64,000 bases of DNA from a virus. The notes beneath the pieces are model-generated. The model had not been told where the DNA came from, did not search any database, and saw only the letters and a list, made by a program, of their open reading frames with translations. The position numbers were made by a program, and so were the translations under genes. This document shows positions 8,138-64,000 of this stretch, piece by piece. The stretch spans positions 31,717 to 95,716 of IMG/VR virus record IMGVR_UViG_3300015370_000013, one strand, 5' to 3'. The first letter of the stretch is position 1, and every line of letters begins with the position of its first letter.

Positions 8138-8172
8138 ACACTTACTTATACCAAAAAAAGGGCACCTTTTTG
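8138..8172 (-). promoter_or_regulatory. Bipartite promoter motif CAAAAAR-N12-TGGTATAAGTRAGTGT (copy 1)
   Basis: Same sequence and spacing at 48908 and 62904; each copy is upstream of a minus-strand unit. Confidence 0.7.
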
Positions 8173-8220
8173 TTTTTTACGGTATGCCGTATACTTAGCG
8201 CACATACAGGATGTGACCCC

Positions 8221-11200
8221 ATGCCCCGATTGACCTCCACACTCACCGACGCAGTCACTAAACGCGAGGACATCCACCGCAAAGCAGTGGAAGGTCTACA
8301 GGACGTATTTCCTATTCAAGCCGGGGAATTGTCTGTAGAAATCGAAAACCCCTACGTCCAAGCCAAAGACTTTTCCTCTCGTGCGCAAAAGGACGCCATC
8401 CTTCACGGGCACACACTACAGGAGCCCCTGCGGGCAGATGTCTTAATCAAACGGGATGGTAAAGTTATTGACCGAAAAAAAGCGATGACCTTGGGTCAAA
8501 TCCCCTACTTTAATCAGCGACACACCTTCGTAGTGGACGGTAACGAATACAGTGTGTCCAATCAAAAACGCGTACGCCCTGGAGTATACACGCGGGTGCG
8601 TGGAAATGAGCAGCTGGAAGCGGCGTTTAACCTGGGTAAAGGTGAGAACTTTCGAATCAACATGGACCCAGCGAAAGGTCACATGTTCCTGCAGTACGGT
8701 TCAACTAATATCCCCCTTTACCCTATCCTAAAACAGATGGGAGTGAATGACACGGAGCTGAAGAAACACTGGGGCGCAGGGATGGTTGACCTCAATCGTG
8801 ATGCGTTCAAAACGAAACAAGACGCCTCAGTTACTAAGCTATACGAGCGGCTGGTTCCGGCGTATCAACGCACGGCTACTGTCTCTGACAGTATGGGGCG
8901 GGAAATACAGAAGAGGTATCAAGATACACAGCTCGACCCTGAAGTTACGGAAAAGACGCTAGGTAAGGGTTTCAAACACGTCACACCCGAGACCATGATG
9001 CTCGCGTCCAAGAAGCTCCTGGACGTACACCGTAAGGGAGAAGATACCGACGACCGTGACAGTCTTGCGTTCCAAACACTGCACGGCGTCGAAGACTTCT
9101 TGAAAGAACGTATCCAGTTGGAGGGACGACGGTTACAGCGTAAGGTACGCATCAAAGCGAGCAGTCAGCAACAGAACCCCACAGTCGAAAAGATTATGCC
9201 TGCAGCACCATTCACTCGGTCACTTCGCAACTTCCTAACCACTGCGACGCTCTCAGCGATCCCTGCGCAGATTAACCCCATCGAGATTCTCGACAGTGCG
9301 GTGCGTGTCACGTCGCTGGGAGAAGGCGGCATCGGGTCGGAGCGCGCAGTCCCCAGTGAGGCGCGAAGGCTGCACCATACGCACTTTGGGGTGCTGGATC
9401 CCGGACGTACGCCAGAGTGCCACAGCAGTGACACCGAGGTATACACGAAACAAGGGTGGAAGTACTGGAGTGAGGTCACGGAACAAGACCTCCTCGCTTG
9501 TAAAATCAACGGACAACCACGCTTTCACCGACCCAAACACTTGGTCGCCATGCACTACTGTGGCCCCATGCTGGGATTAGAAACCGAAGAAACGGGGTAT
9601 CTCGTAACACCCAACCACCGTATGCGGTGTCAGCACCCAAACAAAGCGTCCTGGTGCATCGAATACGCTGAAGATATACACCACAAACCGCGTGTTTTTG
9701 ATATCGGGTACAAAATACCCCATGTAACCGACGAAACCGTACACGGCTATTTCGAACAAGCCTACGACGACCTTGTGTACTGTGCCGAAGTGCCTGGGGG
9801 TTTACTGTATACACGCCGTAAAGGTAAACCGCCCCTTTGGTTAGGCAACTCATTCCGCGCGGGCATCGATCTACGTACATCCATCTGGACGAAGAAGGAT
9901 AACCAAGGACATATGTATACCCTGATGCGTAATGCGCGCACAGGGAAACTCGAAGACGTACCACTCCGTACACTGGAACATTCGACCATCGCTTTTTCAG
10001 GGGAAGCAGATAAGCAACGTAACGTTAGTGCGATGCGTATGGGTGAAATACGTTCCGTATCGCGTAAAGACGTGGACTATGATTTACCACACCCGTCGTT
10101 CCAGTTCAGTCCCGCGACAAACCTGGTTCCTATGCCTGAAAGCCTACAAGGTAACCGCATCATTTTGGGAAGTAAGATGGCTACCCAGGCGTTACCTTTG
10201 GTTGGACGGGAGGCCCCTCTCGTACAGGTACAATCCTTCAACCCTGGACGTACTTTTGAACAGGAGTTGGCAGACCGTATTGTGCCGAGCGCACCGGTCA
10301 GCGGCAAAATTAAAAAGATTGATGAGGACTATATCTACTTACGGCCTGACGGGCGTAAAAGCGCTGCTGTGTCGGACTATCCACCTTGGTGGGAGACCCA
10401 GAGTGTTTTAACGGAGAAGAACGCTGAAGTGGGAGGAGTACCTCTTATCAAAATCCCGTACGATACGAACTTCCCTCTCGCATCCAAAACGAGATTACAC
10501 AACACGATCATCGTTAAAGAGGGCGACCACGTTGACGCGAAGCAGCATCTCGCAGGGTCTAATTTCACAAAGGACGGGGTATTAGCGTTGGGTAAGAACC
10601 TCCAGGTCGGCTATATGGCCTACTACGGTGCGAACTCTAACGATGCAGTGGTTATCTCAGCAGGAGGTGCTATCAAACTGACATCGGAACACATGTATAA
10701 AGAGTCCATAGCGCTTGACGACGATGTGGTGATGGATAAAAACAAACACCGCGCTCGCTTCGGTATGAAATGGACTGCGAAGCAGTATGACAACCTGGAT
10801 GAAAAAGGCGTAGCTAAGTCCGGTGTCACGGTGCAGCCGGGAGACCCCATCATTATTGTATTGCGTAAAACACAACCCACCGCCGAACAAAAGATGTTAG
10901 GTAAGTTGCACAGGTCCCTAACGATGCCTTTTCGAGAGGACGTGGTGACGTGGGAGCACAAGTCACCGGGTACAGTTATGGACGTTGTAGTGACGCCGCG
11001 CCGTGTTCTTGTTACGGTTGCTACTGAAGAAGCTGCGGGAGTAGGCGACAAATTAAGTGGACGTTACGGCAACAAAGGAGTTATCTCTCAAATCATACCC
11101 GATGATCAGATGGTCCAAACACCCGACGGTAAACCTATAGATATCTTAATGACCTCGGCGGGTATCGTTTCACGTATTAATCCCGCGCAGATCATTGAAA

Positions 11201-14200
11201 CAGCCGTCAGCAAGGTAGCGGAGAAGACCGGAAAACCTATCGTTGTTCCGTCGATGTCTGGACGCGATAACGTTAAATGGGCACGAGGGCTCCTAAAAGA
11301 ACACGGGCTCTCGGATAAAGAAATCCTGTACAACCCAGTCACTGGAAAGAACATCGTAGGTCCCGACGGTAAGGGGGTAATGACCGGGAAACAGTACATC
11401 TATAAGTTGTTCAAATCGACGGATACAAACTACGCGGCTCGGGGTATTCAAGACTACGATATCAACTTGCAACCGTCCAAAGGAGGCACAACCGGTGCTA
11501 AATCACTAGGACGCATGGAGATCGACGCGCTCATCGCCCATAACGCACGCGACGTGCTGCGTGAGGCATCTACGATAAAGAGCTCCAGAAACGATGAGTT
11601 CTGGACGCGTTACCAGCTAGGGCAGGCACCGCCCAAGATGCAGACGTCTTTTGCCTACAACAAGTTTACAGACATGTTGCAAGGTGCCGGGATCAAGATC
11701 GACAAGAGTAATGAGAAGCTAACCTTGGGGCCTATGACTGACGCAGACATTACAAAAGTCTCAGCCGGAGCGCTAACCAAGGCCACCATGATCCGCGAGA
11801 AGGATTTCACACCGGAGAGAGGTGGGCTCTTCGACCCTGTAATCACAGGAGGCACACAGGGCAACAGGTGGAGCCATATCGCTCTCACCGAACCCCTTAT
11901 TAACCCCACGTTCGAGGACCCTGTGCGTCGGTTGCTGGGAATGACCAAACAGCAATTCCGTGACACTTTACGCAGTAAAGGGGGAGGCCATATCCAGCAG
12001 CAGCTCAAGGACATTGACGTCACGCAACGAGAGAAGGAGCTTCGTGCAGTCAACCAGACGGCTACCGGTGCGACCCTGGACCAGTCTGTGAAGCAACTCA
12101 AGGCGTTACGGGCGTTGCGCAAGATCGGACTCAGCCCTGACCAAGCGTACGTCGTGAATAAACTTGCGGTTGTTCCCCCTGTAGTGCGTCCCATCCTCCC
12201 TTCCCAAGGTAGACGGGACCTTCTCATCGCCGATGCTAATTACCTGTATCGAGACGCGATGCTTGCCAACGACGCGCTGGCCATGGCCAAAAAAGACCTA
12301 CCCGATGAAGTAGTGGGTGACGCACGCATGGGGTTATACGACTCTACACGTGCGCTATTTGGGCTGGCAGCGCCGGTAAGCCCCCAGCTACAAGCACGCG
12401 ATGCGAAGGGCTTCATCACGACCATCGCCGGACAGGGGTCTCCCAAACGAGGCTTCTTCCACGGAAAGGTCATCAAGCGGCCCCAGAACTTGTCGGGACG
12501 CGGCACGGCAGCTCCCGATATGACCCTCGACATGGATCAGGTGGGCCTACCTGAAGAGATGCTGTGGGCCACCTACGAACCGCATATTGTGCGGCGCATG
12601 GTGCAGAACGGCTACAAGGCGATGCTTGCCAAAGAGATGGTGGAAGCCCGCCACTCCGTCGCCCGAGACGCACTCATGGTAGAGACGAAGCTGCGCCCGG
12701 TGATCATCAACAGGGCACCTACGCTGCATCGTTTTGGGATGGTCGGTGCGCACCCTGTACCTGTCCCTGGGATGACAATCAGGGTTAATCCGTTTATTGA
12801 GAAAGGGCTCAACCTCGATTTTGACGGGGATTCGGTCGATTGTGACCTTGACACATACCAAAAAAGTGAGTATATTCGACTCCACATTAGTAATTTCCCC
12901 CGACAGGAGTCGAGTATGGAACGTAAAGACAACAAAGAAACATACACCGTGCCTCCCGGAATCCAAGTCTTCAGCTACGACGAAGGCACTAGACGCGCCG
13001 TACTACGCGACGTGACCCACTTCTCCGTACACCACGACCTGGAGATGTTAGACGTCGCACTCTCGTCGAAGCGGCACGTCAAGGTATCTCGCGACGCCAG
13101 TATGTACGCCGTAAATCCAGATACTTGGGTTCTTGAACGTGTTAACGCAGAAGACGCCATTGGTTGGGCCACACCGCGTCCTCGTTACCTACACCAGGAG
13201 CGTACGCCGCTTGAAACAGTGGCACTCCCTAAACACACATGGACGTTGGACGCCGCGTTAGGTCAGTTTTTGGGCACCTTCGTGGGCGATGGTTGGGTGT
13301 CCGGTGAAATGTCAAAACACCGTGAGAACCCGTACTGGTATTGGAAAACGGTGGGCCTCGCCAACACCGAAGTTGAGATTAAAGATGCGTACGTTCAGTA
13401 CGCTCAAACGCTCATGTCCGAACCGTTGAACGCTTTGCGCTACGACACCAAAGCCACGGACAAGGGGAGTTATGGTGACTCTACTAAATATCACTTAAAT
13501 TCAATGGAGCTAGCGAGTAAAGTAGCCGAACTGATGGACGATGTACGTGGTGCACACAATAAACACCTCCCCCGCTGTTTCGTCAACGCACCCCGTCCGT
13601 TTCTTCTCGGCCTACTGGGTGGGCTCATCGATACCGACGGGAGTATCTCTAAAGTCCAGGCCAAAGCCAAACCGAAGCCCCAGTGGATGTGTAATTACAC
13701 GAGCGTGTCCAAACGTTTAGTCGATGAGATTGCGGTACTCCTGACTATGCTCGGGGTTAAGAGCGGTATCAACCACAACAAACTACGAGAGGGGAAACGC
13801 CAAGCGTATACGTTGACAATCTCACTGCCAGACCTAGCACGTATCGGACACGAAATACCTCTCGCTAGCACACACAAACGTGAACTCCTACAACAGATGG
13901 TCACCGAATTTGACCAAGAGAGCGTGTACAACATGCGTTGGGATAATGTACCTATATCTACTGAGACGGCACTAGCGCTGGCATGTGCTGTAGGTAGCCC
14001 CAAACACGGCGACACCCCTGAAAAACGAGCACGTATAACACTATATATGCAACTCCACAAAAGTAAGAAAAACCAGCGACTCTCTCGCCTCGCCCTTCAA
14101 CGTACCGTTGATTGCCTCGGAGCGGAGCACGTCATCGCTGAGGGAGGGGAGAACTGGTTCAACCTCGTCACAAACGAAAACATCTTTTTTGATTTCATTG

Positions 14201-14553
14201 AAGAAGCAAACCAACTCCCCGGGCGCCACACCGCGTGGGATTTAACGGTGCCTGGTAGCAACACTTTCATGACGTCCAACCAGGTCGTTGTGTACGACAC
14301 CCTCCAAATCCACGTACCCGTCTCAGACGGTGCGATCAAGGACACCAAGAGCATCACCCTCTCCAACCAGCTATTTGGGGACAAAACCAAGTCAGATCTG
14401 CTAGTATTCCCACAGCACGAAGCGATCATTGGGATCCACGAGGCGAGCCGTGCTACTGGTGGTAAACTGCAGAAGTTCAAGACGACAGCCGACGCGCTCG
14501 CTGCGTACAAGCGTGGTGAGATCAAGATCGAAGATAAAGTGGAAATAGGATGA
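8221..14553 (+). CDS. Phage multisubunit RNA polymerase: full beta fused to N-terminal half of beta', containing two inteins
   Basis: beta motifs GQIPY..TFVVDGNE, RVTSLGEGG, GRTPE, GDKLSGRYGNKGVIS, LGRMEIDAL; beta' motifs PERGGLF, VPPVVRP, NRAPTLHR and catalytic NLDFDGD. Confidence 0.93.
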   Translation: MPRLTSTLTDAVTKREDIHRKAVEGLQDVFPIQAGELSVEIENPYVQAKDFSSRAQKDAILHGHTLQEPLRADVLIKRDGKVIDRKKAMTLGQIPYFNQRHTFVVDGNEYSVSNQKRVRPGVYTRVRGNEQLEAAFNLGKGENFRINMDPAKGHMFLQYGSTNIPLYPILKQMGVNDTELKKHWGAGMVDLNRDAFKTKQDASVTKLYERLVPAYQRTATVSDSMGREIQKRYQDTQLDPEVTEKTLGKGFKHVTPETMMLASKKLLDVHRKGEDTDDRDSLAFQTLHGVEDFLKERIQLEGRRLQRKVRIKASSQQQNPTVEKIMPAAPFTRSLRNFLTTATLSAIPAQINPIEILDSAVRVTSLGEGGIGSERAVPSEARRLHHTHFGVLDPGRTPECHSSDTEVYTKQGWKYWSEVTEQDLLACKINGQPRFHRPKHLVAMHYCGPMLGLETEETGYLVTPNHRMRCQHPNKASWCIEYAEDIHHKPRVFDIGYKIPHVTDETVHGYFEQAYDDLVYCAEVPGGLLYTRRKGKPPLWLGNSFRAGIDLRTSIWTKKDNQGHMYTLMRNARTGKLEDVPLRTLEHSTIAFSGEADKQRNVSAMRMGEIRSVSRKDVDYDLPHPSFQFSPATNLVPMPESLQGNRIILGSKMATQALPLVGREAPLVQVQSFNPGRTFEQELADRIVPSAPVSGKIKKIDEDYIYLRPDGRKSAAVSDYPPWWETQSVLTEKNAEVGGVPLIKIPYDTNFPLASKTRLHNTIIVKEGDHVDAKQHLAGSNFTKDGVLALGKNLQVGYMAYYGANSNDAVVISAGGAIKLTSEHMYKESIALDDDVVMDKNKHRARFGMKWTAKQYDNLDEKGVAKSGVTVQPGDPIIIVLRKTQPTAEQKMLGKLHRSLTMPFREDVVTWEHKSPGTVMDVVVTPRRVLVTVATEEAAGVGDKLSGRYGNKGVISQIIPDDQMVQTPDGKPIDILMTSAGIVSRINPAQIIETAVSKVAEKTGKPIVVPSMSGRDNVKWARGLLKEHGLSDKEILYNPVTGKNIVGPDGKGVMTGKQYIYKLFKSTDTNYAARGIQDYDINLQPSKGGTTGAKSLGRMEIDALIAHNARDVLREASTIKSSRNDEFWTRYQLGQAPPKMQTSFAYNKFTDMLQGAGIKIDKSNEKLTLGPMTDADITKVSAGALTKATMIREKDFTPERGGLFDPVITGGTQGNRWSHIALTEPLINPTFEDPVRRLLGMTKQQFRDTLRSKGGGHIQQQLKDIDVTQREKELRAVNQTATGATLDQSVKQLKALRALRKIGLSPDQAYVVNKLAVVPPVVRPILPSQGRRDLLIADANYLYRDAMLANDALAMAKKDLPDEVVGDARMGLYDSTRALFGLAAPVSPQLQARDAKGFITTIAGQGSPKRGFFHGKVIKRPQNLSGRGTAAPDMTLDMDQVGLPEEMLWATYEPHIVRRMVQNGYKAMLAKEMVEARHSVARDALMVETKLRPVIINRAPTLHRFGMVGAHPVPVPGMTIRVNPFIEKGLNLDFDGDSVDCDLDTYQKSEYIRLHISNFPRQESSMERKDNKETYTVPPGIQVFSYDEGTRRAVLRDVTHFSVHHDLEMLDVALSSKRHVKVSRDASMYAVNPDTWVLERVNAEDAIGWATPRPRYLHQERTPLETVALPKHTWTLDAALGQFLGTFVGDGWVSGEMSKHRENPYWYWKTVGLANTEVEIKDAYVQYAQTLMSEPLNALRYDTKATDKGSYGDSTKYHLNSMELASKVAELMDDVRGAHNKHLPRCFVNAPRPFLLGLLGGLIDTDGSISKVQAKAKPKPQWMCNYTSVSKRLVDEIAVLLTMLGVKSGINHNKLREGKRQAYTLTISLPDLARIGHEIPLASTHKRELLQQMVTEFDQESVYNMRWDNVPISTETALALACAVGSPKHGDTPEKRARITLYMQLHKSKKNQRLSRLALQRTVDCLGAEHVIAEGGENWFNLVTNENIFFDFIEEANQLPGRHTAWDLTVPGSNTFMTSNQVVVYDTLQIHVPVSDGAIKDTKSITLSNQLFGDKTKSDLLVFPQHEAIIGIHEASRATGGKLQKFKTTADALAAYKRGEIKIEDKVEIG
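9418..9849 (+). mobile_element. Mini-intein (144 aa, no endonuclease) in the beta subunit
   Basis: Starts CHSSDTEVYT, block B VTPNHRM, ends YCAEVP...LGN/S; removal restores GRTPE-SFRAG. Confidence 0.88.
12832..14298 (+). mobile_element. Intein (489 aa) with LAGLIDADG homing endonuclease, inserted immediately after catalytic DFDGD
   Basis: LGTFVGDG and LGGLIDTDG motifs; ends AWDLTVPGSNTF...VYD/T; removal restores NLDFDGD-TLQIHVP. Confidence 0.9.
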
Positions 14554-53925: not shown

Positions 53926-55052
53926 TGACCTCCGCGTACCTCACCGGCGCTAAACACGCCTCGGCCCGTCTGGGTCTCTTAAAACTCCTGGAGGGACCTC
54001 TGGGGGAGACACTCACACGTATGCCTGTACAAGCCACCATGGGTGCGTTGGTCGGGGGAGCTTCGGGTTCCCTGTACGATCACCCGGTGGAGGGGGCACT
54101 ACTCGGCGCGTTGAGTGGCGGGTTGGGTGGGTTGGCTGTGGCGCAAGCGCCGCAGATACGGAAGGCGTTGATTAAACGACTCGCGAAGGCGGCGGGGGTC
54201 AAAGAAGCGATTGACCTTGGTGAGCTAAGAAAAATTACCACAAAAATTAAAGGGTTAATCCGACTCCCGAAACACGATCCCCGTACCGAAATCGGCCTCC
54301 ACGCTACGAATCCACACCTAAATAAAGCGTACGCAGCAGAACACTTACGTAACATCGAACGTATGCATATGTCGGGAGACCCGTGGCTAAATTGGGAGAA
54401 GGCCCAGTTAAGAAACGAATTAACCAAAGCCGCCAAACCCGGGCACATTTTCAGCACCGCAGGGGGGTCTGTACGTGGTGAAAAAATACGCGGACTGACA
54501 CCGAATCAATTCGAAGCACGTAATAGGTTGGGTCTAGCACACGAAGTCGATGAGACGGGGGTTAAACGAATCTCTACAGCCTTTGTAGAGCGTGCGCAAC
54601 ACGGTAACCCTGATGTGATTCTACGAGAGCACAACAGAGTGACCACACTACCCAAAAGTCTACGCCCTGCTGGAGATACTATAGTTGCTTTACGCACCGC
54701 TGGACCGGAGGCTCAATTAATCCGCGATGCCACAAAAACAATCAGTGGTCAAAGCGTACAGTTCGGACAAGGACCACGACTTAGTCGCCACGCAAGAAAG
54801 CGGATTGGTCAAAACATCGACCGCCAAACAGCCTATAAACAAGGCTCCTATGCTGCGATGAGAAAACTAGGAGGACTCACGACGCGAGGCATCAAAGACC
54901 CATTCAAAGAAATCCATCGCCAACAAACGCAAGCGTTCAAGGTGAAGATGCCTGAGATGGATACCTCCAAAATGTTGAAGCGTCTGTTCAACAATCCATT
55001 CTCTCAGCCGCAAAAACAACTAACGGGGCAATGGCCGGGGTTACGGGTATGA
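53925..55052 (+). CDS. Tagged multi-module protein (glycine zipper, unknown domain, second tag)
   Basis: AYLTGAKHASARLG; internal KEA; AYKQGSYAAMRKLGG. Confidence 0.65.
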   Translation: MTSAYLTGAKHASARLGLLKLLEGPLGETLTRMPVQATMGALVGGASGSLYDHPVEGALLGALSGGLGGLAVAQAPQIRKALIKRLAKAAGVKEAIDLGELRKITTKIKGLIRLPKHDPRTEIGLHATNPHLNKAYAAEHLRNIERMHMSGDPWLNWEKAQLRNELTKAAKPGHIFSTAGGSVRGEKIRGLTPNQFEARNRLGLAHEVDETGVKRISTAFVERAQHGNPDVILREHNRVTTLPKSLRPAGDTIVALRTAGPEAQLIRDATKTISGQSVQFGQGPRLSRHARKRIGQNIDRQTAYKQGSYAAMRKLGGLTTRGIKDPFKEIHRQQTQAFKVKMPEMDTSKMLKRLFNNPFSQPQKQLTGQWPGLRV

Positions 55053-55735
55053 GTTATTTCTATAACCGAGGTATCGAGTACGCGCTGCAAAAGTACGCAG
55101 TCTCAAACAATACACGACTAGTTGATGTCGGCGGAGCACTGGGTATAGCACTAGCCCCTGTGGTGCTTAGCGGCCCTATATATCGATTAAGTACAAAAGC
55201 AGAAGGACGTTACGCAAAGCCCCTAACAGACGCAGGAATTGAAACCCTACGTAAAAAAATGCATATCCCCAAGGATATTGTGATTCAACATATACCCCGT
55301 ATCCCTCCCCATTACGCGCCCGCGGCCCGTACTGTACGGATACCCCCAAGAGTACTACCGGGTACGCTAAGTCATGAGCTAGGTCACACTATATCACGAA
55401 AAGGTAAACTATTACCCGGTGCACTTGCAGGCCCTAGAGTGGGAGGGCTTCTATCATTAGCAGCACTTCCAGCAGCGATGTACCTCGACCCCGATAGCAC
55501 CACCGCAAAAGCGCTTCCACTTGCCACCACACTACCATGGCTACCACGCTTAGCTGAAGAAGCGCGTGCGTCTTTTCGTGGATACCGCGGTTTACGCGCC
55601 GCTAGACATGGGCGTTCTTCTCTGTTGACGTTACTACCCGCACTGGGGACTTATGCACTAGCCGCAACCGCACCAGCTGCTACATTAGAGTGGATTCGAC
55701 GACGTAGAGCTGCACGACAAGGGGGGTTCTCATGA
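55049..55735 (+). CDS. Tagged membrane zinc metallopeptidase
   Basis: FYNRGIEYALQKYA; PHY...SHELGH...EEARAS. Confidence 0.7.
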   Translation: MSYFYNRGIEYALQKYAVSNNTRLVDVGGALGIALAPVVLSGPIYRLSTKAEGRYAKPLTDAGIETLRKKMHIPKDIVIQHIPRIPPHYAPAARTVRIPPRVLPGTLSHELGHTISRKGKLLPGALAGPRVGGLLSLAALPAAMYLDPDSTTAKALPLATTLPWLPRLAEEARASFRGYRGLRAARHGRSSLLTLLPALGTYALAATAPAATLEWIRRRRAARQGGFS

Positions 55736-55909
55736 TCCAACATACATTCAAACAAGGGAGCGCCCACACCCTCTCCCGTCGCATGGCAAGCGTTCAAGGT
55801 GAAGATGCCTGAGATGGACACCTCTAAGATGTTGAAGCGTCTTTTCAATAACACATTCTCTCAGCCGCAAAAACAACTAGCGGGGTAATGGCCGGGGTTG
55901 CAGGTATGA
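55732..55909 (+). pseudogene. Chimeric duplicated segment
   Basis: 55744-55786 is identical to 57097-57139; 55786-55909 is a diverged copy of 54929-55052; joined out of frame. Confidence 0.8.
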
Positions 55910-57651
55910 ACGAAAACACAACGGATAGTGTATTAAACCTTGCAGGGTCCCTGGGCGCTGCCGCCGCGGTACCAGCTGCAGCGGTAGGGTATGGTGCTCA
56001 CCGTCTGTCCAAAGAATTACCTAAATATCGCCTCGTTGACCCTGCAACCCAAGGTAAAGCTGATGCGTTTAAAGCCCTCGGCGGGGATGCTACTTCCACG
56101 AATGCCTGGATTCGTAGCTATATTAGTCAGGGGAGTGAATTAGCGCGTGAACCCGTAATCACTTTACCGAGTGGAAAACAATACACGGGTGCCGGTGTTC
56201 AGCGAGCGATCCGTGGTAATTCCGGATTAGTGGGGCGTGCAGCAGAGCTTGCAACAGGTACACCTTTCACTCCTAGTTCCCAACTACACTACAAAGCATT
56301 TGAGAAGGGACCGCTCGCAGGGTATACCCGTATGGCCGCTGAGATATATGAAAACCCAGTACATACTCAACGTATACTCGGAGGGAACGCACACTCCTTC
56401 CACGGTCAAAAACAACTACGTAACGATTTTATGACCACAATCGGTGAAGCGCGATATGAAACCGCAAAACAATTAGCTGATCAAGGAAAGCTACACCCGA
56501 CACGTTTTCGTCAAGAACTCCCCAAAGTTCTGCAACGAAAACTTCCAGGCGTCCCAGCAGCGGAAGTAGCGGCATTAGCGGAGTCCCTTGAAGCCCGACT
56601 TCTAAACGCTGACCCCAAAACGTACCTCGAACATTTAAAAAGCGTTGGTGCCAACCAAGACGCCACAGTACTACAAGACAAATTGCTTCGTCATCTTGTA
56701 CCTGATCAAGACCGTAACGCCGCTAATATCGTCGGCAGAGAACTGCGACGTGCATCCAGACAACTTGGATACACAAAAGCACTCGGACAACTTGGACTAA
56801 ACGAACAAGAAAAAGTCCTCGCACATGCGTTACATGGGTCTTCTAATAACCCACTCCTACAATACCTGAATTTACGTCTCCGCGAAGGATGGAAGACCGC
56901 ACCTAAACAATACGGGAATATGATCGACCCCTTAGTACACTACGGTGGTGTACACCGTCGAATTAGTAGCGCTGTTAAAAACATTAAGCGTCTAGGAATC
57001 GGAGGAGCACTGTTGGGTGGTGGTTTAGCACTCGCCCCCTTGGCTGCTAAAGCACTAACTCCCGACAAACCTACAATAACAGACCAATTACGACGCACAT
57101 TCAAACAAGGGAGCGCCCACACCCTCTCCCGTCGCATGGAGTTCCAGGGCCTGAACATCTCCATCGAGACGGACAAGGGAGAGTATCGTCATTGGTATGA
57201 CCCGCACAAAGAAGAGTCAGGCAAAACGTTAATGAAGCACCCCTACGGTTACATACGCCGTACCCTGGGTGTGGACGGCGACCACTGTGACGTCTACGTA
57301 GGGCCGAACGAACAAGCCAAAAACGTCTACGTCGTCAACCAAATGAAGAAACCAAAAGACGGTACAAAAATGTGGACTGTCTTCGATGAGCAGAAACATA
57401 TGCTCGGTTTCAACACAGCAGCAGAAGCCAAAGCAGCGTACCTGCAACACTACGACGACCCTCGCTTTTTTGGTTCCGTAACAGCCATGCCTTTTGATGA
57501 ATTCAAAACGCAGGTGCTGAAGACTTTCGACGCGCCGAAACGTCAGCTAAAAATTTCCAGTGTGGCTTACCGGTTAGGCGTTCTACACGCACTAGAAAAA
57601 TTGGGGGGCGTCTACCGTGCATCCATACCAGTCCCAGGAGTTAGGTTATGA
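55906..57651 (+). CDS. Multi-module protein with polyvalent-protein-type inorganic pyrophosphatase domain
   Basis: GLNISIE..KG...YGYIRRTLGVDGDHCDVYVG...FDEQKHMLGF..AY; tag-like motifs on both sides. Confidence 0.75.
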   Translation: MNENTTDSVLNLAGSLGAAAAVPAAAVGYGAHRLSKELPKYRLVDPATQGKADAFKALGGDATSTNAWIRSYISQGSELAREPVITLPSGKQYTGAGVQRAIRGNSGLVGRAAELATGTPFTPSSQLHYKAFEKGPLAGYTRMAAEIYENPVHTQRILGGNAHSFHGQKQLRNDFMTTIGEARYETAKQLADQGKLHPTRFRQELPKVLQRKLPGVPAAEVAALAESLEARLLNADPKTYLEHLKSVGANQDATVLQDKLLRHLVPDQDRNAANIVGRELRRASRQLGYTKALGQLGLNEQEKVLAHALHGSSNNPLLQYLNLRLREGWKTAPKQYGNMIDPLVHYGGVHRRISSAVKNIKRLGIGGALLGGGLALAPLAAKALTPDKPTITDQLRRTFKQGSAHTLSRRMEFQGLNISIETDKGEYRHWYDPHKEESGKTLMKHPYGYIRRTLGVDGDHCDVYVGPNEQAKNVYVVNQMKKPKDGTKMWTVFDEQKHMLGFNTAAEAKAAYLQHYDDPRFFGSVTAMPFDEFKTQVLKTFDAPKRQLKISSVAYRLGVLHALEKLGGVYRASIPVPGVRL

Positions 57652-58187
57652 CACCCCTTAACCTCGCATATCAACTTGGCGCAATTCAAGCGGAGACTGA
57701 CTTCCGTAAACGAGCATCTCTCGCAACAATTGGTGGTGGTGCGCTACTCGGTGGTATAGGTGGAGCTATCAGTGGTAAAGACTACTCCGCTAAACGTATC
57801 TTGGGTGGTGCACTACTCGGTGGTACAGGTGGACATTTCGCTGGACAAGGTTTACAAGCATTACGTGCAGCACGTCAACCTACGGCGTTGGCACCAAAAG
57901 TAACTGGAGCAGCGCCTGTTGCAGCAGCGCCTGTTGCAGCAGCGCCTGTTGCAGCAGCGCCTGTTGCAGCAGCGCCTGTTGCAGCAGCGCCTCGCGCCGT
58001 CCCCCGTGCAGCACCACGCCCATCAGCGGTAGAGGACGCATCACGACGCGCAACAGAAGACGCTCAAGCACGTCTTCGCATGTATCAAGAAGGCGGTATA
58101 TCCCCCGCAGGATTAAATATCAAATACTCACCGGAGGACTATCAAGCCTTCCGTAGCGCGGGTATTAACCTCGACACATTGGTGTAG
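57648..58187 (+). CDS. Tagged glycine-zipper / Ala-Pro repeat protein
   Basis: MTPLNLAYQLGAIQAETDFRKRA leader. Confidence 0.7.
   Translation: MTPLNLAYQLGAIQAETDFRKRASLATIGGGALLGGIGGAISGKDYSAKRILGGALLGGTGGHFAGQGLQALRAARQPTALAPKVTGAAPVAAAPVAAAPVAAAPVAAAPVAAAPRAVPRAAPRPSAVEDASRRATEDAQARLRMYQEGGISPAGLNIKYSPEDYQAFRSAGINLDTLV
57909..57992 (+). repeat. 15-bp tandem repeat, about 5.6 copies, coding AAPVA
   Basis: (gcagcgcctgttgca)n. Confidence 0.9.
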
Positions 58188-58194
58188 GAAAAAC

Positions 58195-58659
58195 ATGACC
58201 CCTCTCAACCTCGCGTATCAACTCGGCGCAATTCAAGCGGAGACTGACTTCCGTAAACGAGCCGAAGACGACCTCGGTCTGGGTCCCAGCATTATCAAGA
58301 CACCGAGTCGCATGCCTATGCAACGTCCCGCCGCACCCATGCCTGCAGCACCCATGGTTCCTCGCGCTGCAGCTGCTCCGCGACGTATGCCCGGCACTGC
58401 TGTACCTGGTGGACCCATCGCACCTCCGGTCAACGACGGGATGCAGCAGCGGGAAATTGTAAACCCAAAGGCGCAGGCAGCGTACATGCAAAAAATTAAA
58501 AACCAACCGCTCTTCGCGCCGGGTTATAATCAAGCTCCGAAACCGACACCGAGGGCACCTGCGGTGAAGCCTGTTGTGAAACCAGCGGTGAACCCGTTCT
58601 CCAAAAGAACCAACTCCCTTGCACCAACTATAGACGGCAGCGGTTCACTGCGGTCATAG
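58195..58659 (+). CDS. Tagged Pro-rich disordered protein
   Basis: 23-aa leader identical to that of 57648. Confidence 0.7.
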   Translation: MTPLNLAYQLGAIQAETDFRKRAEDDLGLGPSIIKTPSRMPMQRPAAPMPAAPMVPRAAAAPRRMPGTAVPGGPIAPPVNDGMQQREIVNPKAQAAYMQKIKNQPLFAPGYNQAPKPTPRAPAVKPVVKPAVNPFSKRTNSLAPTIDGSGSLRS

Positions 58660-58669
58660 GAGCTAGACG

Positions 58670-59116
58670 ATGACACCCCTCAACCTCGCATATCAACTCG
58701 GCGCAATCAGTGCGACGGAAGATTTCCGTAAGCACGCTGAACCTGCACTAGGCGACCCCAACTTCTGGCAAGGCGGGCAAGAAGCCATGCAAGCGCCGCC
58801 GCAACCGCAGAACGCGGAAGAAGCTATCGCCTTGCTTCCTGCAGGGACGTTCCAGGGCCTACAAAGCAAGCTCACACCTGATGGACAGAAGACTACAACC
58901 GTCAAGGTGTCCCCAGAAGCGTTGACGCAGCCTGAGGGCCTCGCCAGTATTTTTCAAACAGGGGAACAAGCCAAGGTAGAGATCGAAGTGCCCCAAGCCC
59001 CTGCAGGCGGGGGAGCGCCGATGGGTGGAGCACCGCCGATGGGTGGAGCACCGCCGATGGGAGGAGGCGCACCGATGGGAGCTGAGGGAGGTGCCCCTCA
59101 AGGCCCTTTAGCTTGA
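58670..59116 (+). CDS. Tagged protein with GGAPPM repeats
   Basis: MTPLNLAYQLGAISATEDFRKHA; AGGAG RBS. Confidence 0.7.
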   Translation: MTPLNLAYQLGAISATEDFRKHAEPALGDPNFWQGGQEAMQAPPQPQNAEEAIALLPAGTFQGLQSKLTPDGQKTTTVKVSPEALTQPEGLASIFQTGEQAKVEIEVPQAPAGGGAPMGGAPPMGGAPPMGGGAPMGAEGGAPQGPLA

Positions 59117-59136
59117 AAGAGGCCGGTGCAGGTAGC

Positions 59137-59388
59137 ATGCTTGTAAACCGCGCCGTCCAAGTAGCAAACAAAGAACCCGACGTAAAAACAACGGGAGAGA
59201 ATACCACACGCCTGTTCAACCTCCTCAAGAGTTGGCTTAAACGAGATGAACCAGCGCCGCTGCAACCCGAACCAGCGCCTGCGCCAAAGACAGAACCCCC
59301 GGTTATTATTGAAACTCCTCCACTCCCCACAGAAGCTGTGGTTAAAGAAGAGGTGCCGCTTATTATCCCTCGGTTATTCCCCCAATAA
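59137..59388 (+). CDS. Hypothetical Pro/Glu-rich protein
   Basis: ORF fills the gap. Confidence 0.45.
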   Translation: MLVNRAVQVANKEPDVKTTGENTTRLFNLLKSWLKRDEPAPLQPEPAPAPKTEPPVIIETPPLPTEAVVKEEVPLIIPRLFPQ

Positions 59389-59471
59389 CTGCTTGACATT
59401 GTGCCCCGCGTATGTTTATCTAACTAACATACTAAAAATGCCAAATAACGGCATTAAAGGTTTGCGCATAC

Positions 59472-59750
59472 ATGCCCCTCATATCTTTCGATTATGAGTG
59501 TGAAAAGTGCCGCACCATTGAAGAACATCTCGTACAACAAAACAGCGGTGTGATTACTGAAACAATATACTGTCCCACTTGCGCTTCCGAACTAATCCGT
59601 CTTCATCCCGCCCCCGCAGTTTTCAATACAATAATCCCCACATACCCGGGTAGCCGCGCACGTAAAGCCGGGTATCAACACCTCTACGGTAATCGCCCCG
59701 CCACCAAGACACAGGTCGGTGTAGGGGGCGGTGTCTCTAAAGGAGACTAA
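59472..59750 (+). CDS. FmdB-like zinc-ribbon protein
   Basis: MP..DYECEKC...E...CPTC. Confidence 0.7.
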   Translation: MPLISFDYECEKCRTIEEHLVQQNSGVITETIYCPTCASELIRLHPAPAVFNTIIPTYPGSRARKAGYQHLYGNRPATKTQVGVGGGVSKGD

Positions 59751-60500
59751 ATGGATATCACACTCCCCGACCCTAACGACCCTGGACTCCCTAAAGTCGT
59801 GCCTGGACACCTGTTATGGGTGGAAGGGATTGTGGGTGCGGGCAAAACAACCTTTTGCCGTAATATTGGTCCTCTCCTCAATCTACGTGTAATAGAAGAA
59901 CCTGTCGCTACAAACCCCTACCTCAAACGGTTCTATCAAGACCCAAAGAAATACGCCTTTCCCATGCAAATATGTTTGTTAGCGCTGCGTGCAAAGATGC
60001 AACAGCTCGCCATGTGGGAAGCATCAGGTGTGGGGAGATACAACGGGGCCATGCTGGATCGTTCCCTTTCAGGAGACCGTGTCTTTGCTAAACAGCACGC
60101 TCGAAACGGCAACATTTCACGGCTGGACTGGTGGACCTACGAACAGGCATACGACGCCTTCTGTCGCCCCATCGCCCCACCGGTTCGTTTAATCTACCTA
60201 ATCGTAGATCCGGAATGTGCTTTGGAACGAATACAGCGCCGCAAAGTTGAAGACCCGGAAAACCGTGCGTGTGAATCGGCCATTACGTTAGACTACCTAA
60301 AGTCCTTACGTGATGGTTACGACGAACTCATGGAAGAAGCAGAACACGGACTCTTACCCTGGGGAAACGCTGTCAAGATCAACCGTATGCACTGGGACCC
60401 TATGGGTGGTGAACCTCGGTGGGACCTCATCGCCAGGAGTTTACAAGTGGAATGCCAACTACATGCCAAACAAAAACAAGTAACAACGCTTCTCATATAG
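59751..60500 (+). CDS. Deoxynucleoside kinase
   Basis: EGIVGAGKTT, EPV, FYQDP, DRS..D..FA, RIQRR. Confidence 0.88.
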   Translation: MDITLPDPNDPGLPKVVPGHLLWVEGIVGAGKTTFCRNIGPLLNLRVIEEPVATNPYLKRFYQDPKKYAFPMQICLLALRAKMQQLAMWEASGVGRYNGAMLDRSLSGDRVFAKQHARNGNISRLDWWTYEQAYDAFCRPIAPPVRLIYLIVDPECALERIQRRKVEDPENRACESAITLDYLKSLRDGYDELMEEAEHGLLPWGNAVKINRMHWDPMGGEPRWDLIARSLQVECQLHAKQKQVTTLLI

Positions 60501-60642
60501 ACAGCGACTGTTTTCAGAAGTGGTATACCAAACGCCCCCGGAAACCACAGGATCGTTATCTCTGTAGAACATGTGAGTATTGGCACTACTGCACACAGAA
60601 CCCTGGACCAACGTTAACGTACTACATACTGGATAATATACG

Positions 60643-60867
60643 ATGAAAGGACGCGAATACTCTGAGGGACAGCCCCTAGGAGATTTTCTTCAAAAGTACC
60701 CCGGAGGAGTCCTCCTTTTACGCGGTAAATTCGCAGGGCAGTATCTCCACAGTGTCCCTCGCGGATACGTTCGTAAATACATACTTGTAAACTGGATAGA
60801 CGATATGACACCCCGTGAGCTGGAGCTCTTTACGCTCCACGGACAAAAAGAGGAACCAGATGGATAA
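60643..60867 (+). CDS. Hypothetical protein (DUF3820-like)
   Basis: GKFAGQYLHSVPRGY motif. Confidence 0.55.
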   Translation: MKGREYSEGQPLGDFLQKYPGGVLLLRGKFAGQYLHSVPRGYVRKYILVNWIDDMTPRELELFTLHGQKEEPDG

Positions 60868-61414
60868 AGTAACGAAGGCATTTAACAATGTGGCAAAGAA
60901 TAGTGGGTCGATGAGTGTAGCACTCACCGAGAAACCGGCGAAGCGGCGCGTACCCAGTATACGTCAAGCCGCAGATGATCTCGAATTACTCCTGGATTAT
61001 CTCCTCGCCGATCCACAGCAACTTCAACACCAGGCGGAGTTTGTTTTAAGTGCCCGCGCCCTGGAGTATGTGGTGGAGCGTCTGGACGACATCGACGGCG
61101 TACACACTACACTCACAGATACCCCGTATCAGGGAACTTCCGAAACAGACGAACACCTCTATTTGGATATCGACCACACCAAACGTTTCACAGTGGTTGA
61201 GTCTGGGGACTTTGAACTACCCAACCACACAGAACCATTACTAATAGTTAAACGCTTAGGGGACCAACTTCTCGGCGTTATACACGACACGCTATCCTCA
61301 TACGAGAGCTGTCACGTATACCTCGTACCCCACCTCTGTTGCACAACATTAACCAAGGTAGCTAACACCGTAACCGCAGAGATCAGCGTACCCATGTACG
61401 TTGAAACACGATGA
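60860..61414 (+). CDS. Hypothetical protein
   Basis: GAGGA RBS before the ATG at 60860. Confidence 0.6.
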   Translation: MDKVTKAFNNVAKNSGSMSVALTEKPAKRRVPSIRQAADDLELLLDYLLADPQQLQHQAEFVLSARALEYVVERLDDIDGVHTTLTDTPYQGTSETDEHLYLDIDHTKRFTVVESGDFELPNHTEPLLIVKRLGDQLLGVIHDTLSSYESCHVYLVPHLCCTTLTKVANTVTAEISVPMYVETR

Positions 61415-61854
61415 CTTGGCAATGGTGGTACTGGGTTACACTCGGCGTGACCGCGCTACTCAGTTTCTTCCCTCTACTACCCAATTTAGCGAACCTGTCT
61501 CATGAGGCAGCGCACTGGTTCTTCGCACGTATCGTAAACAACGTCAAAGGACGCATCAAACCATATTGGCACTACAGCTTTGACGAGAAGCTGTGGAAGT
61601 CCCCGCGATACTGGGCCGAGATGCCGCTCCCCACCACTAAACACACAGTTTACCTTATCGCACCCATCATCTTTGATAGCTTGTGGCTTATCGTCTTGGG
61701 TGTGCTGTGTTGGTACATAGACAACACAGTCGCACGCATCCACCTGGCTATACCGATGATGGGTTTCCTCTTCGACTTCGGTTGGTTCTGGAGAGGATAC
61801 TTCTGGGGAACGAAGAACTGTGATGGGAAACGTTGGCGTTATGGTGTGACCTAA
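61411..61854 (+). CDS. Membrane zincin (M50-like) peptidase
   Basis: TM helices; HEAAH...IAP...DG. Confidence 0.55.
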   Translation: MTWQWWYWVTLGVTALLSFFPLLPNLANLSHEAAHWFFARIVNNVKGRIKPYWHYSFDEKLWKSPRYWAEMPLPTTKHTVYLIAPIIFDSLWLIVLGVLCWYIDNTVARIHLAIPMMGFLFDFGWFWRGYFWGTKNCDGKRWRYGVT

Positions 61855-61890
61855 AAAAAAGGCACACCCCCGATTAGGAAGTGTGCCTTT
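61853..61890 (-). terminator. Intrinsic terminator after rpsL (possibly bidirectional)
   Basis: aaaggcacac/gtgtgccttt stem with 8 T on the minus strand. Confidence 0.7.
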
Positions 61891-61892
61891 GT

Positions 61893-62291
61893 TTAACTCT
61901 TGGGCCTCTTCACCCCGTACTTCGACCGCCCCTGATTTCTCCCGGGTTTACCCCCACCCGGGGATACGGGGGACGCATCTGCATTCTTCGCCCCACGAAT
62001 TACGTGGTAACGCACACCGGGGAGGTCCTTGACGCGACCACCCCGAAGCAGGACCACCGAGTGCTCCTGCAAGTTGTGGTCCTCACCCGGGATGTAGGTG
62101 GTGACCTCCATCCCGTTGCTGAGCCTCACTCTGGCCACCTTACGCAGCGCCGAGTTCGGCTTTTTGGGTTTTACGGTGTAGACGCGGAGACAAACACCTC
62201 GTATTTGTGGCGCTCCTTGCATCGCCTTTGTTTTGGATTTCTTTCGAATACGCTTACGGCCCTTTCGGACCAACTGGGTGATTGTTGGCAT
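61893..62291 (-). CDS. rpsL: 30S ribosomal protein S12 (phage-encoded, orphan)
   Basis: [35 protein letters not shown]; AGGAG RBS. Confidence 0.97.
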
Positions 62292-62336
62292 ACTGCTATT
62301 CTCCTACAACGGTGGAAAAAAAGATACTCCGCGAAC

Positions 62337-62439
62337 TTCCCGTTAGTAGGCCCCAGCGGAGAAACAGCCTTGTTGCAAAAGGAGTGATGCGCGACATGAA
62401 CAAACACGCATCAACGCGCCTGAGAGGCCCACACGGGAA
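62337..62439 (-). ncRNA. Putative structured RNA in the rpsL leader
   Basis: Nested stems ttcccgt/acgggaa, gtgggcc/ggcctac and tgatgcgtg/cgcgcatca; G-U pairs form only on the minus strand. Confidence 0.5.
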
Positions 62440-62492
62440 CACATTTAGACATCAGACGCAAATAGCCACATGTGCAATGTGGCAACTAAGTT

Positions 62493-62845
62493 TGGACACG
62501 CCGGATTTCGATATCCGGGTCCACAACTGCTCAGCTAATGACTCTACAAGCTTGTCCGCTGATTTATTACCCACCAAAGCGCCCAGCGACAGGCTCCGTG
62601 GTTTCTTTTGCTACCCGCACTTCCAGGACCAACGGTAGCGTGAATCCTTGTCCTGTTCATCGTCGTTCTTATGACCCGTCACAGGCGGGAGAAGCCACAG
62701 AACGGGACTGCGGTTTAGGCAGCCATCGCCAGCTGAATGTTATCGTTGGCATTTGAGGTTGGCATCGTTTTTTAACCCGGAACCACGCCGTCCGGAGCTT
62801 GCATCACTTCGCATCGTACAGCCATGTCGAAGCCAATTCGTGCCC
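62493..62845 (-). ncRNA. ssrA: tmRNA, tag ANDNIQLAMAA* (62750-62715)
   Basis: Acceptor stem GGGCACG/CGTGTCC-A with G3-U70; GGCTTCGAC near the 5' end; T-arm; 353 nt; CCA not encoded. Confidence 0.92.
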
Positions 62846-62903
62846 GAAAAAAAAAAGAAACAGTAACGCTAACTAAGTGTGAACCATAACTACATCGTAC
62901 CTT

Positions 62904-62938
62904 ACACTCACTTATACCACGCTTCCTACAGTTTTTTG
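62904..62938 (-). promoter_or_regulatory. Bipartite promoter motif (copy 3), upstream of tmRNA-rpsL
   Basis: CAAAAAA-N12-TGGTATAAGTGAGTGT. Confidence 0.7.
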
Positions 62939-62961
62939 AAAATAGTTGATACACTAGTAGT

Positions 62962-63516
62962 ATGCGCAGCTACAAAACAGCCCTCCGACAATTTCACGCA
63001 CAACACCCTAGCCCCATGGACCAGCTCGTCAAAGACCTGGAGGAGTTACGAGCACACGCTCGAAATCATGTGCAAGGTTGTTACCCATTAGCACCAACTA
63101 CACCCTCCAGCGGTGTTGCGTGGTACCTAAACTTGACACACGGTATTAGTGTTGTAGGGAGTGTCGCGCAGGAATTCATCGCACAAACAGACCACGTATT
63201 GTTTGCTGGAAGTGCACTTGCCGTCGGCCAAAGCTGCGTCGCTGCACTCGTTATTAAAAACACAGGAAGTGTTGTGTCTCAGACCCACGTATTCGGAGTC
63301 GTCGCGGCCACAGGTGCGGAAGTTGCGCCAAGTGCAGCCACCATCACCGCAGCGCTTGCTGTAGGTGATATTTGGATCCGTACAGGGGAGACTACGCTGA
63401 ACCGCTCAGGCGGGGGCTATACGCAGACCTACGACGGGACCAAACGGCCTATCTTGGGCGTGACGCTCAGTCCCAACTTTGGGGACTACAGTTGGCTTCC
63501 TAATATATTGGGTTGA
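62962..63516 (+). CDS. Putative structural protein
   Basis: Ala/Val/Thr-rich; ATG 6 nt after TACACT. Confidence 0.6.
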   Translation: MRSYKTALRQFHAQHPSPMDQLVKDLEELRAHARNHVQGCYPLAPTTPSSGVAWYLNLTHGISVVGSVAQEFIAQTDHVLFAGSALAVGQSCVAALVIKNTGSVVSQTHVFGVVAATGAEVAPSAATITAALAVGDIWIRTGETTLNRSGGGYTQTYDGTKRPILGVTLSPNFGDYSWLPNILG

Positions 63517-63518
63517 AT

Positions 63519-63752
63519 TTACGCCGTAAAGTCTGTCGCGTCCTCACACTCCAAACACCGTAGTTTCCTGGGTGCTGGGTAAGGTCCCTGGTCCTCATCA
63601 CCATCGAGATCGCAGTATCTCACGGCGTAGGTCCCTGAGTGCCCGCATTCAAGAACACACCGCCATGAGACGATATCCTCGTGCGGGTGTCGCTCGTCGT
63701 GGGCGACGGGTTTAGGTGTGCGGCGTGCGGTCTTGACGATGCGTTCGATCAT
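63519..63752 (-). CDS. Small zinc-ribbon protein
   Basis: LECGH...CLEC. Confidence 0.55.
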   Translation of the reverse strand: MIERIVKTARRTPKPVAHDERHPHEDIVSWRCVLECGHSGTYAVRYCDLDGDEDQGPYPAPRKLRCLECEDATDFTA

Positions 63753-63783
63753 TTTTTTTTTTTTTAGCTCTTGGTTACGCCTT

Positions 63784-64000
63784 TCACCGTGTCACCAGGA
63801 CCAGGCGGATGATGAGGGTGGCGATCACGGCGACGGCGCCGGCCACGGCTGCGAGGGTGATCCACCGGACAGACCAACCTGTCTGCACCGTGGCCACGGC
63901 ACTTATCTTCGCGGCGTTGACGGCGATGCCTGCGGCGTTCTCCGTGGTCTTCTCTTTCACCCGGACGTGCCGCTCGTCGCAGCGCCGCTCCTCCACGACG
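63784..64000 (-). CDS. Small membrane protein, probably 5'-truncated by the window edge
   Basis: C..RH coil followed by one C-terminal TM helix. Confidence 0.45.
   Translation of the reverse strand, partial: VVEERRCDERHVRVKEKTTENAAGIAVNAAKISAVATVQTGWSVRWITLAAVAGAVAVIATLIIRLVLVTR

Follow-up and report, generated by a model that had tools for sequence, protein, structure and literature searches.

A uS12 gene of an apparently phage-specific lineage adjoins a tmRNA gene on a phage contig

Introduction

The ribosomal protein uS12 is located at the decoding centre, where it governs accuracy, speed and the response to aminoglycosides, and it is assembled into the ribosome rather than exchanged. The ribosomal proteins published from phages to date are mostly solvent-exposed and exchange between ribosomes (PMC6375957). 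Al-Shayeb et al. 2020 list S4, S1, S21 and L7/L12 (PMC7162821), and the search set of Mizuno et al. 2019 included a hidden Markov model for S12, which is not named as a match in the accessible portions of the main text or supplement (PMC6375957). Here a uS12 gene, its relatives and the transfer-messenger RNA (tmRNA) gene that precedes it are described from a stretch of 64,000 nucleotides (the window), which makes up the final 64 kb of a linear IMG/VR contig of 95,716 bp (record IMGVR_UViG_3300015370_000013, positions 31,717 to 95,716; the phage contig is designated G000). An earlier note on the letters of this DNA had singled out the gene and had set it against the ribosomal proteins reported from phages, which it described as mainly exchangeable proteins of the ribosome surface, in agreement with the published accounts (PMC6375957, PMC7162821).

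In the literature searched, the sole prior mention of a phage S12 that was found is in a study of huge phages from a glacier foreland, where S12 is listed among the KEGG-annotated ribosomal proteins (PMC11748809); in the accessible portion of that source the listing is a single line, with no sequence analysis, phylogeny, genomic context or link to tmRNA. The reading of the present locus towards which we lean, if only slightly, is that of a maintained phage uS12 gene, belonging to a phage-specific lineage found in unrelated large phages and forming a module with a tmRNA gene, the product of which would be incorporated into the 30S subunit.

Results

The window encodes an intact uS12

The gene and the signals that frame it are the following.

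61893..62291, minus strand: coding sequence of a uS12 (rpsL-type) protein of 132 amino acids, stop codon included (open reading frame (ORF) list, PF00164, TIGR00981 and alignment to solved S12 chains)
62301..62305, minus strand: Shine-Dalgarno sequence AGGAG, nine bases 5' of the S12 ATG (read from the sequence)
61858..61890, minus strand: intrinsic terminator hairpin with a 14-bp stem, followed by a T run (terminator scan and sequence)

The S12 ORF was found to match Pfam PF00164 with an E value of 4.7e-37 (126.5 bits, cut-off 22.3) and the NCBIfam equivalog TIGR00981 rpsL_bact with 190.9 bits (cut-off 112.95), the latter over model positions 1-123 of 124. Solved bacterial S12 chains were aligned with it end to end (E 2e-51; query residues 1-131 against chain residues 1-123), with residues 2-122 of the E. 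coli chain matching residues 3-131 of the phage protein, and the N-terminal extension is present, alignable from residue 1 and unchanged relative to bacterial S12. Judged by these matches, the predicted product is unambiguously an intact, full-length uS12 of bacterial type, and the earlier description of an intact S12 with its own ribosome binding site and terminator was borne out. The database gene call for this locus (P0008) is of 109 amino acids and starts at an internal methionine; the frame of 132 amino acids is the correct one, because homology reaches residue 1 of bacterial S12. An AlphaFold2 model built with 13 sequences was poor (mean predicted local distance difference test score, pLDDT, of 58, and below 50 at the C-terminus).

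Both decoding loops, PKKPNSA (with K43 and K44) and RVKDLPGVR (with K88, D89 and P91), are identical to those of the solved Thermus and Flavobacterium S12 and are invariant in the S12 alignments A1 and A3, with no departure from wild type at K43, K88 and P91, the residues linked to streptomycin and to accuracy. Alignment to the solved chains thus confirmed that the motifs PKKPNSA and RVKDLP are intact and that GED replaces GEG (G71D), as had been noted earlier. The changes typical of the clade to which the protein is assigned below adjoin the accuracy residues, with T40V and T41K beside the decoding loop and G71D in the GEGHN loop. Identity was approximately 60-73% to named bacterial S12 proteins and reached at most 81%, over aligned columns, to unlabelled metagenome S12.

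No S7 gene was found in the whole 95.7-kb contig, and neither EF-G nor any other bacterial neighbour gene was found beside S12 in it, so that the reported lack of rpsG and fusA was confirmed. There was no PHROGs family for S12 or its immediate neighbours, the matches of a tblastn search against a collection of phage records were confined to S12 of mislabelled bacterial entries, and a megablast search with positions 55000-64000 gave no match.

S12 is linked to a genuine phage contig

The contig, for which CheckV gave a completeness of approximately 53%, is a genuine phage fragment. It encodes a large terminase (phrog_675, E 1e-55), a PolA fused to UDG, a class II ribonucleotide reductase, a gp5-like baseplate hub, a SNF2 helicase, an endolysin and a head-protease-like protein, as well as a fused RNA polymerase beta/beta' ORF (window positions 8170-14553, 2127 amino acids), a homologue of which is carried by a related phage, G003. 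An in-frame LAGLIDADG domain at residues 1812-1896 of the RNA polymerase ORF looks like an intein.

The S12 stretch was found to be present in groundwater metagenomes from several studies. In run X1, a single Logan contig of 4449 bp spans positions 59315-63763 with zero differences, and in run X2, which comes from a different study seven years later, a contig of 6178 bp spans positions 58225-63834 at a depth of 113x, differing from the window by 29 substitutions and 6 gaps, none of which falls within the S12 coding sequence. Both contigs run from a deoxynucleoside kinase gene through S12 and the tmRNA gene to 63763 and 63834, respectively. The palindrome TTTACNSNGTAAA, used as a marker of phage DNA, occurs in 11 copies in the window (sites 3228 to 63518) against 0.02 expected, and its copies at 60717 and 63518 flank S12 on both sides.

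It was considered whether S12 could be an assembly chimera or host contamination at the contig end, as the gene is just 1.7 kb from that end, the last 217 bases (63784-64000) occur at 750-1200x depth, compared with 11-113x for the phage, with several mismatches to the abundant sequence, and four other IMG/VR 'viral' contigs with S12 and S7 look bacterial. This explanation is opposed by the bridging contigs from two different studies, by the phage-specific palindrome on both flanks, by the lack of S7, EF-G or another bacterial neighbour and by the occurrence of the same tmRNA-S12 module deep inside the complete genome of G003. Because single contigs from two independent groundwater studies bridge both sides of S12, its linkage is not chimeric; an assembly chimera at S12 was refuted by these contigs, and we give the explanation next to no credence. 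The bases at 63784-64000 may represent either a chimeric end of the contig or a repeat that an abundant organism also carries, and their depth and mismatches probably account for the stop of the assembly there. The linkage that the earlier note had proposed to check by read coverage is thereby established, and its description of the gene as phage-encoded is upheld by the hallmark genes, the bridging assemblies and the five large viral contigs with a stand-alone S12 that are presented next.

S12 belongs to a lineage shared by phages

A pattern scan of IMG/VR returned ten further S12 loci. Five lie in records that lack S7 throughout, namely G001 (441,904 bp, scored complete), G003 (193,340 bp, scored complete and with a 152-bp terminal repeat), G002 (127,888 bp), G004 (89,773 bp) and G006 (11,057 bp). 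Four others adjoin S7, their S12 grouping with Bacteroidota or Firmicutes-like sequences, and L010 has a Firmicutes-type S12 at the contig end. The short IMG/VR 'viral' contigs with bacterial-type S12 (L005, L008, L009, L010 and L011) are probably cellular DNA filed as viral.

In a maximum-likelihood tree from which the insertion columns were left out, 14 phage-type S12 proteins were separated from 54 bacterial ones (ultrafast bootstrap, UFBoot, 96; SH-aLRT 95), and a tree of 209 sequences agreed on this split (SH-aLRT 94). The 14 comprise the S12 of the window, the five viral S12 and eight unlabelled metagenome proteins; P0001-P0007, which are assembly duplications on contigs of less than 2 kb, were left out. 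The trees rest on approximately 124 columns, and the bacterial S12 sampled are top matches plus arbitrary bacterial samples rather than a census. In a profile search of 5.8 billion proteins, approximately 28 further clusters of the phage S12 type were found, on contigs of up to 442 kb. The clade is marked by V or I at position 40 (usually TVK, compared with bacterial TTT), frequently by D71 and by an insertion that usually ends in P-x-R-N; in the window S12, TVK precedes PKKPNSA and the spacer, 21 residues long, ends in PGRN. From the phylogeny and these residues, the window S12 is assigned to a phage-specific lineage, outside all the bacterial S12 sampled.

At least 18 genes, among them those for the RNA polymerase and the terminase, are common to G000 and G003, largely collinear and with 23-53% identity, and the S12 proteins of the two phages are 65% identical and in the same orientation relative to the structural genes. 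That S12 is shared by two phages whose core genes are so far apart indicates that it has been kept through deep divergence of this phage group. Phages that otherwise have almost nothing in common with G000 carry S12 as well.

The S12 of G004 (L012:787-1176) is the most divergent of the stand-alone viral proteins, having R43 and a second decoding loop altered at positions 86, 88, 91, 94 and 96; it lacks the C-terminal insertion and yet scores 192.9 bits on TIGR00981. The 442-kb G001, whose S12 gene lies at G001:C1:233716-234183, also encodes bS21.

The C-terminal insertion varies within the clade

Compared with the Thermus, Flavobacterium and E. coli chains, the window S12 has eight extra residues, situated between the last beta strand and the RSKYG tail. 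The spacer from RG to RSKYG is of 13 or 15 residues in most of the bacteria sampled and of 20-29 residues, variable in sequence, in the phage clade, while in a bacterial S12 of 132 amino acids that we term Myxococcota-type (named members in the source records are Sandaracinaceae, Polyangiales and Myxococcales) it is constant at 21 residues with a nearly invariant sequence. The insertion, as seen in these alignments, is a variable trait of the clade and not peculiar to this phage. Of what the earlier note had said about it, the approximately eight residues in excess of E. coli S12 therefore stand, and a phage-specific novelty does not, as the insertion varies within the clade and Myxococcota-type S12 has one at the same site.

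In the tree, the Myxococcota-type S12 constitutes a separate, supported clade on the side of the bacteria. A topology joining this clade to that of the phages was not rejected (approximately unbiased test, P =0.37), and a donor of this type was unsupported by the free tree in the donor search by phylogeny. An old Myxococcota-like donor of the phage S12 is possible on this sequence comparison. The phylogeny that had earlier been proposed as a means to find the donor thus resolved the phage-type clade (with the UFBoot and SH-aLRT values given above) and not the donor itself.

S12 is conserved between phages and strains

Pairwise ratios of non-synonymous to synonymous substitution rates (dN/dS) among the six viral S12 genes were about 0.16-0.25 where computable, with dS saturated. 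In the X2 strain there are 0 changes in the 399-bp S12 gene, against approximately 2 expected from the 29 in the surrounding 5.6 kb, and the one S12 variant in run X3 is a third-position change. The Shine-Dalgarno sequence is kept in the X2 variant, with a spacer shortened by two 1-base deletions at 62297 and 62300.

A tmRNA gene precedes S12

A tmRNA gene was identified 200 nt upstream of S12 on the same strand, inside an apparent intergenic stretch of 670 bp. The earlier note on S12 omits it. The features of this region are the following.

62492..62845, minus strand: phage tmRNA (ssrA) gene (Rfam RF00023, 95.5 bits against a gathering threshold of 47, E 8.7e-36, full model 1-374)
62715..62750, minus strand: tmRNA tag frame, resuming at GCC and encoding the 11 residues ANDNIQLAMAA, then TAA (Rfam alignment and sequence)
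62292..62491, minus strand: ORF-free spacer of 200 nt between tmRNA and S12, without a notable fold (fold z-score -1.1)
62465..62483, minus strand: 7-bp hairpin directly after the tmRNA 3' end, followed by TATTTG (sequence and minimum-free-energy fold)
62911..62919, minus strand: TGGTATAAG, an extended -10-like motif 66 nt 5' of the tmRNA gene, with four exact copies in the window

The acceptor stem of the tmRNA has the G3:U70 pair of alanine identity, a T arm is present and CCA is not encoded. Tags of the ANDN...AA type also occur in Myxococcota and Gemmatimonadota genomes. ARAGORN reported zero tRNA or tmRNA genes in the window or at the G003 locus, which by Rfam is a false negative; Rfam itself found no group I or group II intron, and no family besides tmRNA, in the 96-kb contig. 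In run X2, an A-U pair of the tmRNA T stem is replaced by C-G through compensatory changes at 62505 and 62514, and of the remaining variants in the tmRNA region (62528 and 62586) one turns a U-A pair into U-G, keeping a wobble pair, and one lies in a loop. As these changes preserve its helices, the tmRNA is under structural constraint. All four phage tmRNAs compared start with GGGC and end with GUCCA, and all four bacterial tmRNAs sampled start with GGGG and end with CUCCA; these ends hint at a phage tmRNA lineage. No SmpB was found in G000-G004 (G000 being approximately 53% complete), and so a host SmpB would have to serve the phage tmRNA.

The hairpin at 62465..62483 is a possible processing or weak termination site, and TGGTATAAG is a candidate promoter of the tmRNA-S12 unit, both functions being putative. 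Enrichment of TGGTATAAG in the window was not significant once one mismatch was allowed, and a sigma-70 promoter scan gave no more sites than shuffled sequence, with none between tmRNA and S12. From this layout, a single tmRNA-S12 transcription unit closed by one strong terminator is plausible. No RNA data set was listed among those that contain this stretch, and the metatranscriptome run X7, from the same groundwater study as X2, yielded a single phage piece of 145 bases (62891-63035), outside S12, along with short rpsL pieces of other organisms.

The same order of tmRNA and then S12 was found in G003, preceded by approximately 25 tRNA genes. In G001 the tmRNA gene is 14 kb from S12, with tRNA genes approximately 7 kb away on the other side; a tRNA array lies 7 kb from S12 in G004, and the tmRNA gene of G002 is distant from S12. 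Between the tRNA array and the tmRNA-S12 pair of G003, at L007:6834-8458, lie genes for an HNH endonuclease and a TnpB-like protein (OrfB_IS605 plus a Cas12f-like TNB domain).

Other features of the locus

In four of the relatives (G001, G002, G003 and G006) a small helical ORF of 89-118 amino acids is found directly upstream of S12, its stop overlapping the S12 start. The coordinates of these ORFs are as follows.

L004:9679-10035, helical partner ORF
L007:9729-10022, helical partner ORF
L006:9766-10038, helical partner ORF
L003:2093-2362, helical partner ORF

The ORFs of G001 and G003 match each other with an E value of 2e-9, and no Pfam family was found for them. No homologue was detected anywhere in G000 by tblastn (E of up to 10), where the 200-nt spacer occupies the place of this ORF.

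The gene downstream of S12 is convergent and an orphan, matching no known family. The S12 terminator may also end this plus-strand gene (61411-61854), since an A run flanks the other side of the hairpin.

The X2 strain lacks 547 bp at 57677-58225, with 38 identical bases shared by both sides at the joint. The deletion removes one of three adjacent genes that share a 23-residue leader and is consistent with recombination between the repeated leaders.

Discussion

In the mechanism proposed here, phage uS12 would be made during infection and would be built into 30S subunits in place of host uS12, probably entering during the assembly of new subunits rather than by exchange on mature ribosomes. 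The former route is the likelier because uS12 is buried, binds late and is not among the exchanging ribosomal proteins (PMC6375957); it is described as joining late in assembly and as acting, in addition, as a chaperone of nascent rRNA (PMC10931766). Incorporation is supported by the conservation of the protein over its whole length, including residues for which no role outside the 30S subunit is known. T40V, T41K and G71D, together with the variable C-terminal loop, would then retune or sustain decoding and factor interplay in the phage's favour, with the phage tmRNA acting alongside by means of host SmpB. The tmRNA and S12 would on this account constitute a translation module, which is the likely arrangement; in G003 the pair follows a tRNA array.

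A number of points weigh against this account. The expression of phage S12 and its incorporation into 30S are predictions from the gene sequence, and genomic context is known for 6 of the 14 members of the clade, the other eight being proteins alone. uS12 is absent from the ribosomal proteins listed as exchanging between ribosomes (PMC6375957), so that a copy supplied by the phage would depend on rRNA synthesis and 30S assembly continuing in the infected cell. Phage S12 would also have to be compatible with the 16S rRNA of the host. Solved pre-accommodation complexes have no S12-SmpB contact (PMC3929946, PMC3989591), so that adjacency to the tmRNA gene need not mean direct cooperation. The GC content at third codon positions (GC3) of S12 is 0.67 in G000, compared with 0.57 +/- 0.08 for long ORFs (approximately 1.2 standard deviations), and S12 is a strong outlier in G001 (0.85 compared with 0.36) and in G004. 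This pattern suggests transfer between phages or codon bias, and with such outliers S12 may move between genomes and not be fully ameliorated everywhere.

Three other roles, or the lack of one, were weighed against the same data. Phage S12 might act outside the ribosome as an RNA chaperone for structured phage RNAs (tmRNA, introns and other non-coding RNAs) or for nascent rRNA, given that uS12 aids the splicing of a T4 group I intron in vitro and chaperones nascent rRNA, speeding the binding of uS4 (PMC10931766), and that S12 adjoins a structured RNA gene in both G000 and G003. However, tmRNA is the only such RNA that Rfam found in the contig, and a general chaperone needs neither the decoding-centre residues K43, K88, D89 and P91 nor the N-terminal tail that threads into the 30S body, all of which are conserved; we regard this role as unlikely. 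A neutral passenger, that is, a recently captured host gene with no adaptive role, is highly improbable. The GC3 of S12 exceeds the phage mean somewhat in G000 and by far in G001 and G004, and in G003 the module has mobile-element genes (HNH and TnpB) as neighbours, but the clade is separate from all the bacteria sampled, the gene is shared with a phage whose core genes are just 23-53% identical, and its frame, ribosome binding site and terminator are intact. Low dN/dS (with dS saturated) and the independent strain with zero S12 change amid 29 nearby differences argue in the same direction.

The third possibility, of which the replacement of a damaged host S12 had been put forward in the earlier note alongside altered fidelity, is that the gene is a spare part or decoy in counter-defence, such that a host defence or toxin hits uS12 and the phage copy replaces it or absorbs the attack. 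A tmRNA here and tRNA arrays in the relatives would fit a kit that restores translation after an attack, and an arms race could lie behind the surface changes specific to the clade and the variability of its C-terminal loop. We know of no defence system that targets uS12, and none turned up in the searches made; selection on the core residues appears to be purifying and not diversifying (dS being saturated), and replacement would still call for assembly into new subunits. Such a function is distinctly unlikely. In preference to these, we return to the account of a maintained phage uS12 that enters new 30S subunits.

A stronger form of that account would make phage uS12 and phage tmRNA one functional unit, in which ribosomes containing phage uS12 would decode, and respond to A-site ligands, differently, and the tmRNA, with host SmpB, would rescue and tag on these ribosomes in the phage's favour. 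This is unlikely. If true, the rescue could be useful, for example, after host nucleases have cut mRNA or tRNA, and a virus would for the first time be seen to remodel the decoding centre itself.

The occurrence of a phage-only uS12 lineage in unrelated large phages, together with its tie here to tmRNA, implies an intervention by some phages in ribosome assembly or in decoding itself, and it suggests that the changes such phages make to the host ribosome reach its core as well as the exchangeable proteins of its surface. As probes of decoding, natural S12 variants near K43 and in the GEGHN loop are available from this lineage, which also provides a concrete, testable case for the long-debated virus-specialised ribosomes.

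Comparison with known systems

Phage S12 resembles bacterial uS12, the product of rpsL, the first gene of the str operon, in its full-length match, decoding loops, D89 and N-terminal extension. Unlike bacterial rpsL, the phage gene stands alone, with no rpsG, fusA or tufA, and follows a tmRNA gene, and its product differs in T40V, T41K, G71D and the 8-residue C-terminal insertion. Myxococcota-type S12 is like it in total length (132 amino acids) and in the site of the insertion between RG and RSKYG, and a subgroup has V40 and the RN motif; its insertion is nearly invariant, whereas that of the phage clade is variable.

With the virus-encoded bS21, bL12, bL9, bL31 and bL33 (PMC6375957, PMC7162821) the present gene has in common that it is a cellular ribosomal protein gene and that it is found mostly in large phages with other translation genes; like them it may be under purifying selection. 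Unlike most of the phage ribosomal proteins already published, uS12 is buried, enters late in assembly and belongs to the decoding centre. The tmRNAs of huge phages (Al-Shayeb et al. 2020) share with that of G000 a tag frame and the alanine identity pair; some huge phages carry SmpB, and none was found in G000. ARAGORN, which was used in that study, misses the tmRNAs of G000 and G003. Unlike the huge-phage tmRNAs described, those of G000 and G003 directly precede S12, an arrangement not found in the literature searched.

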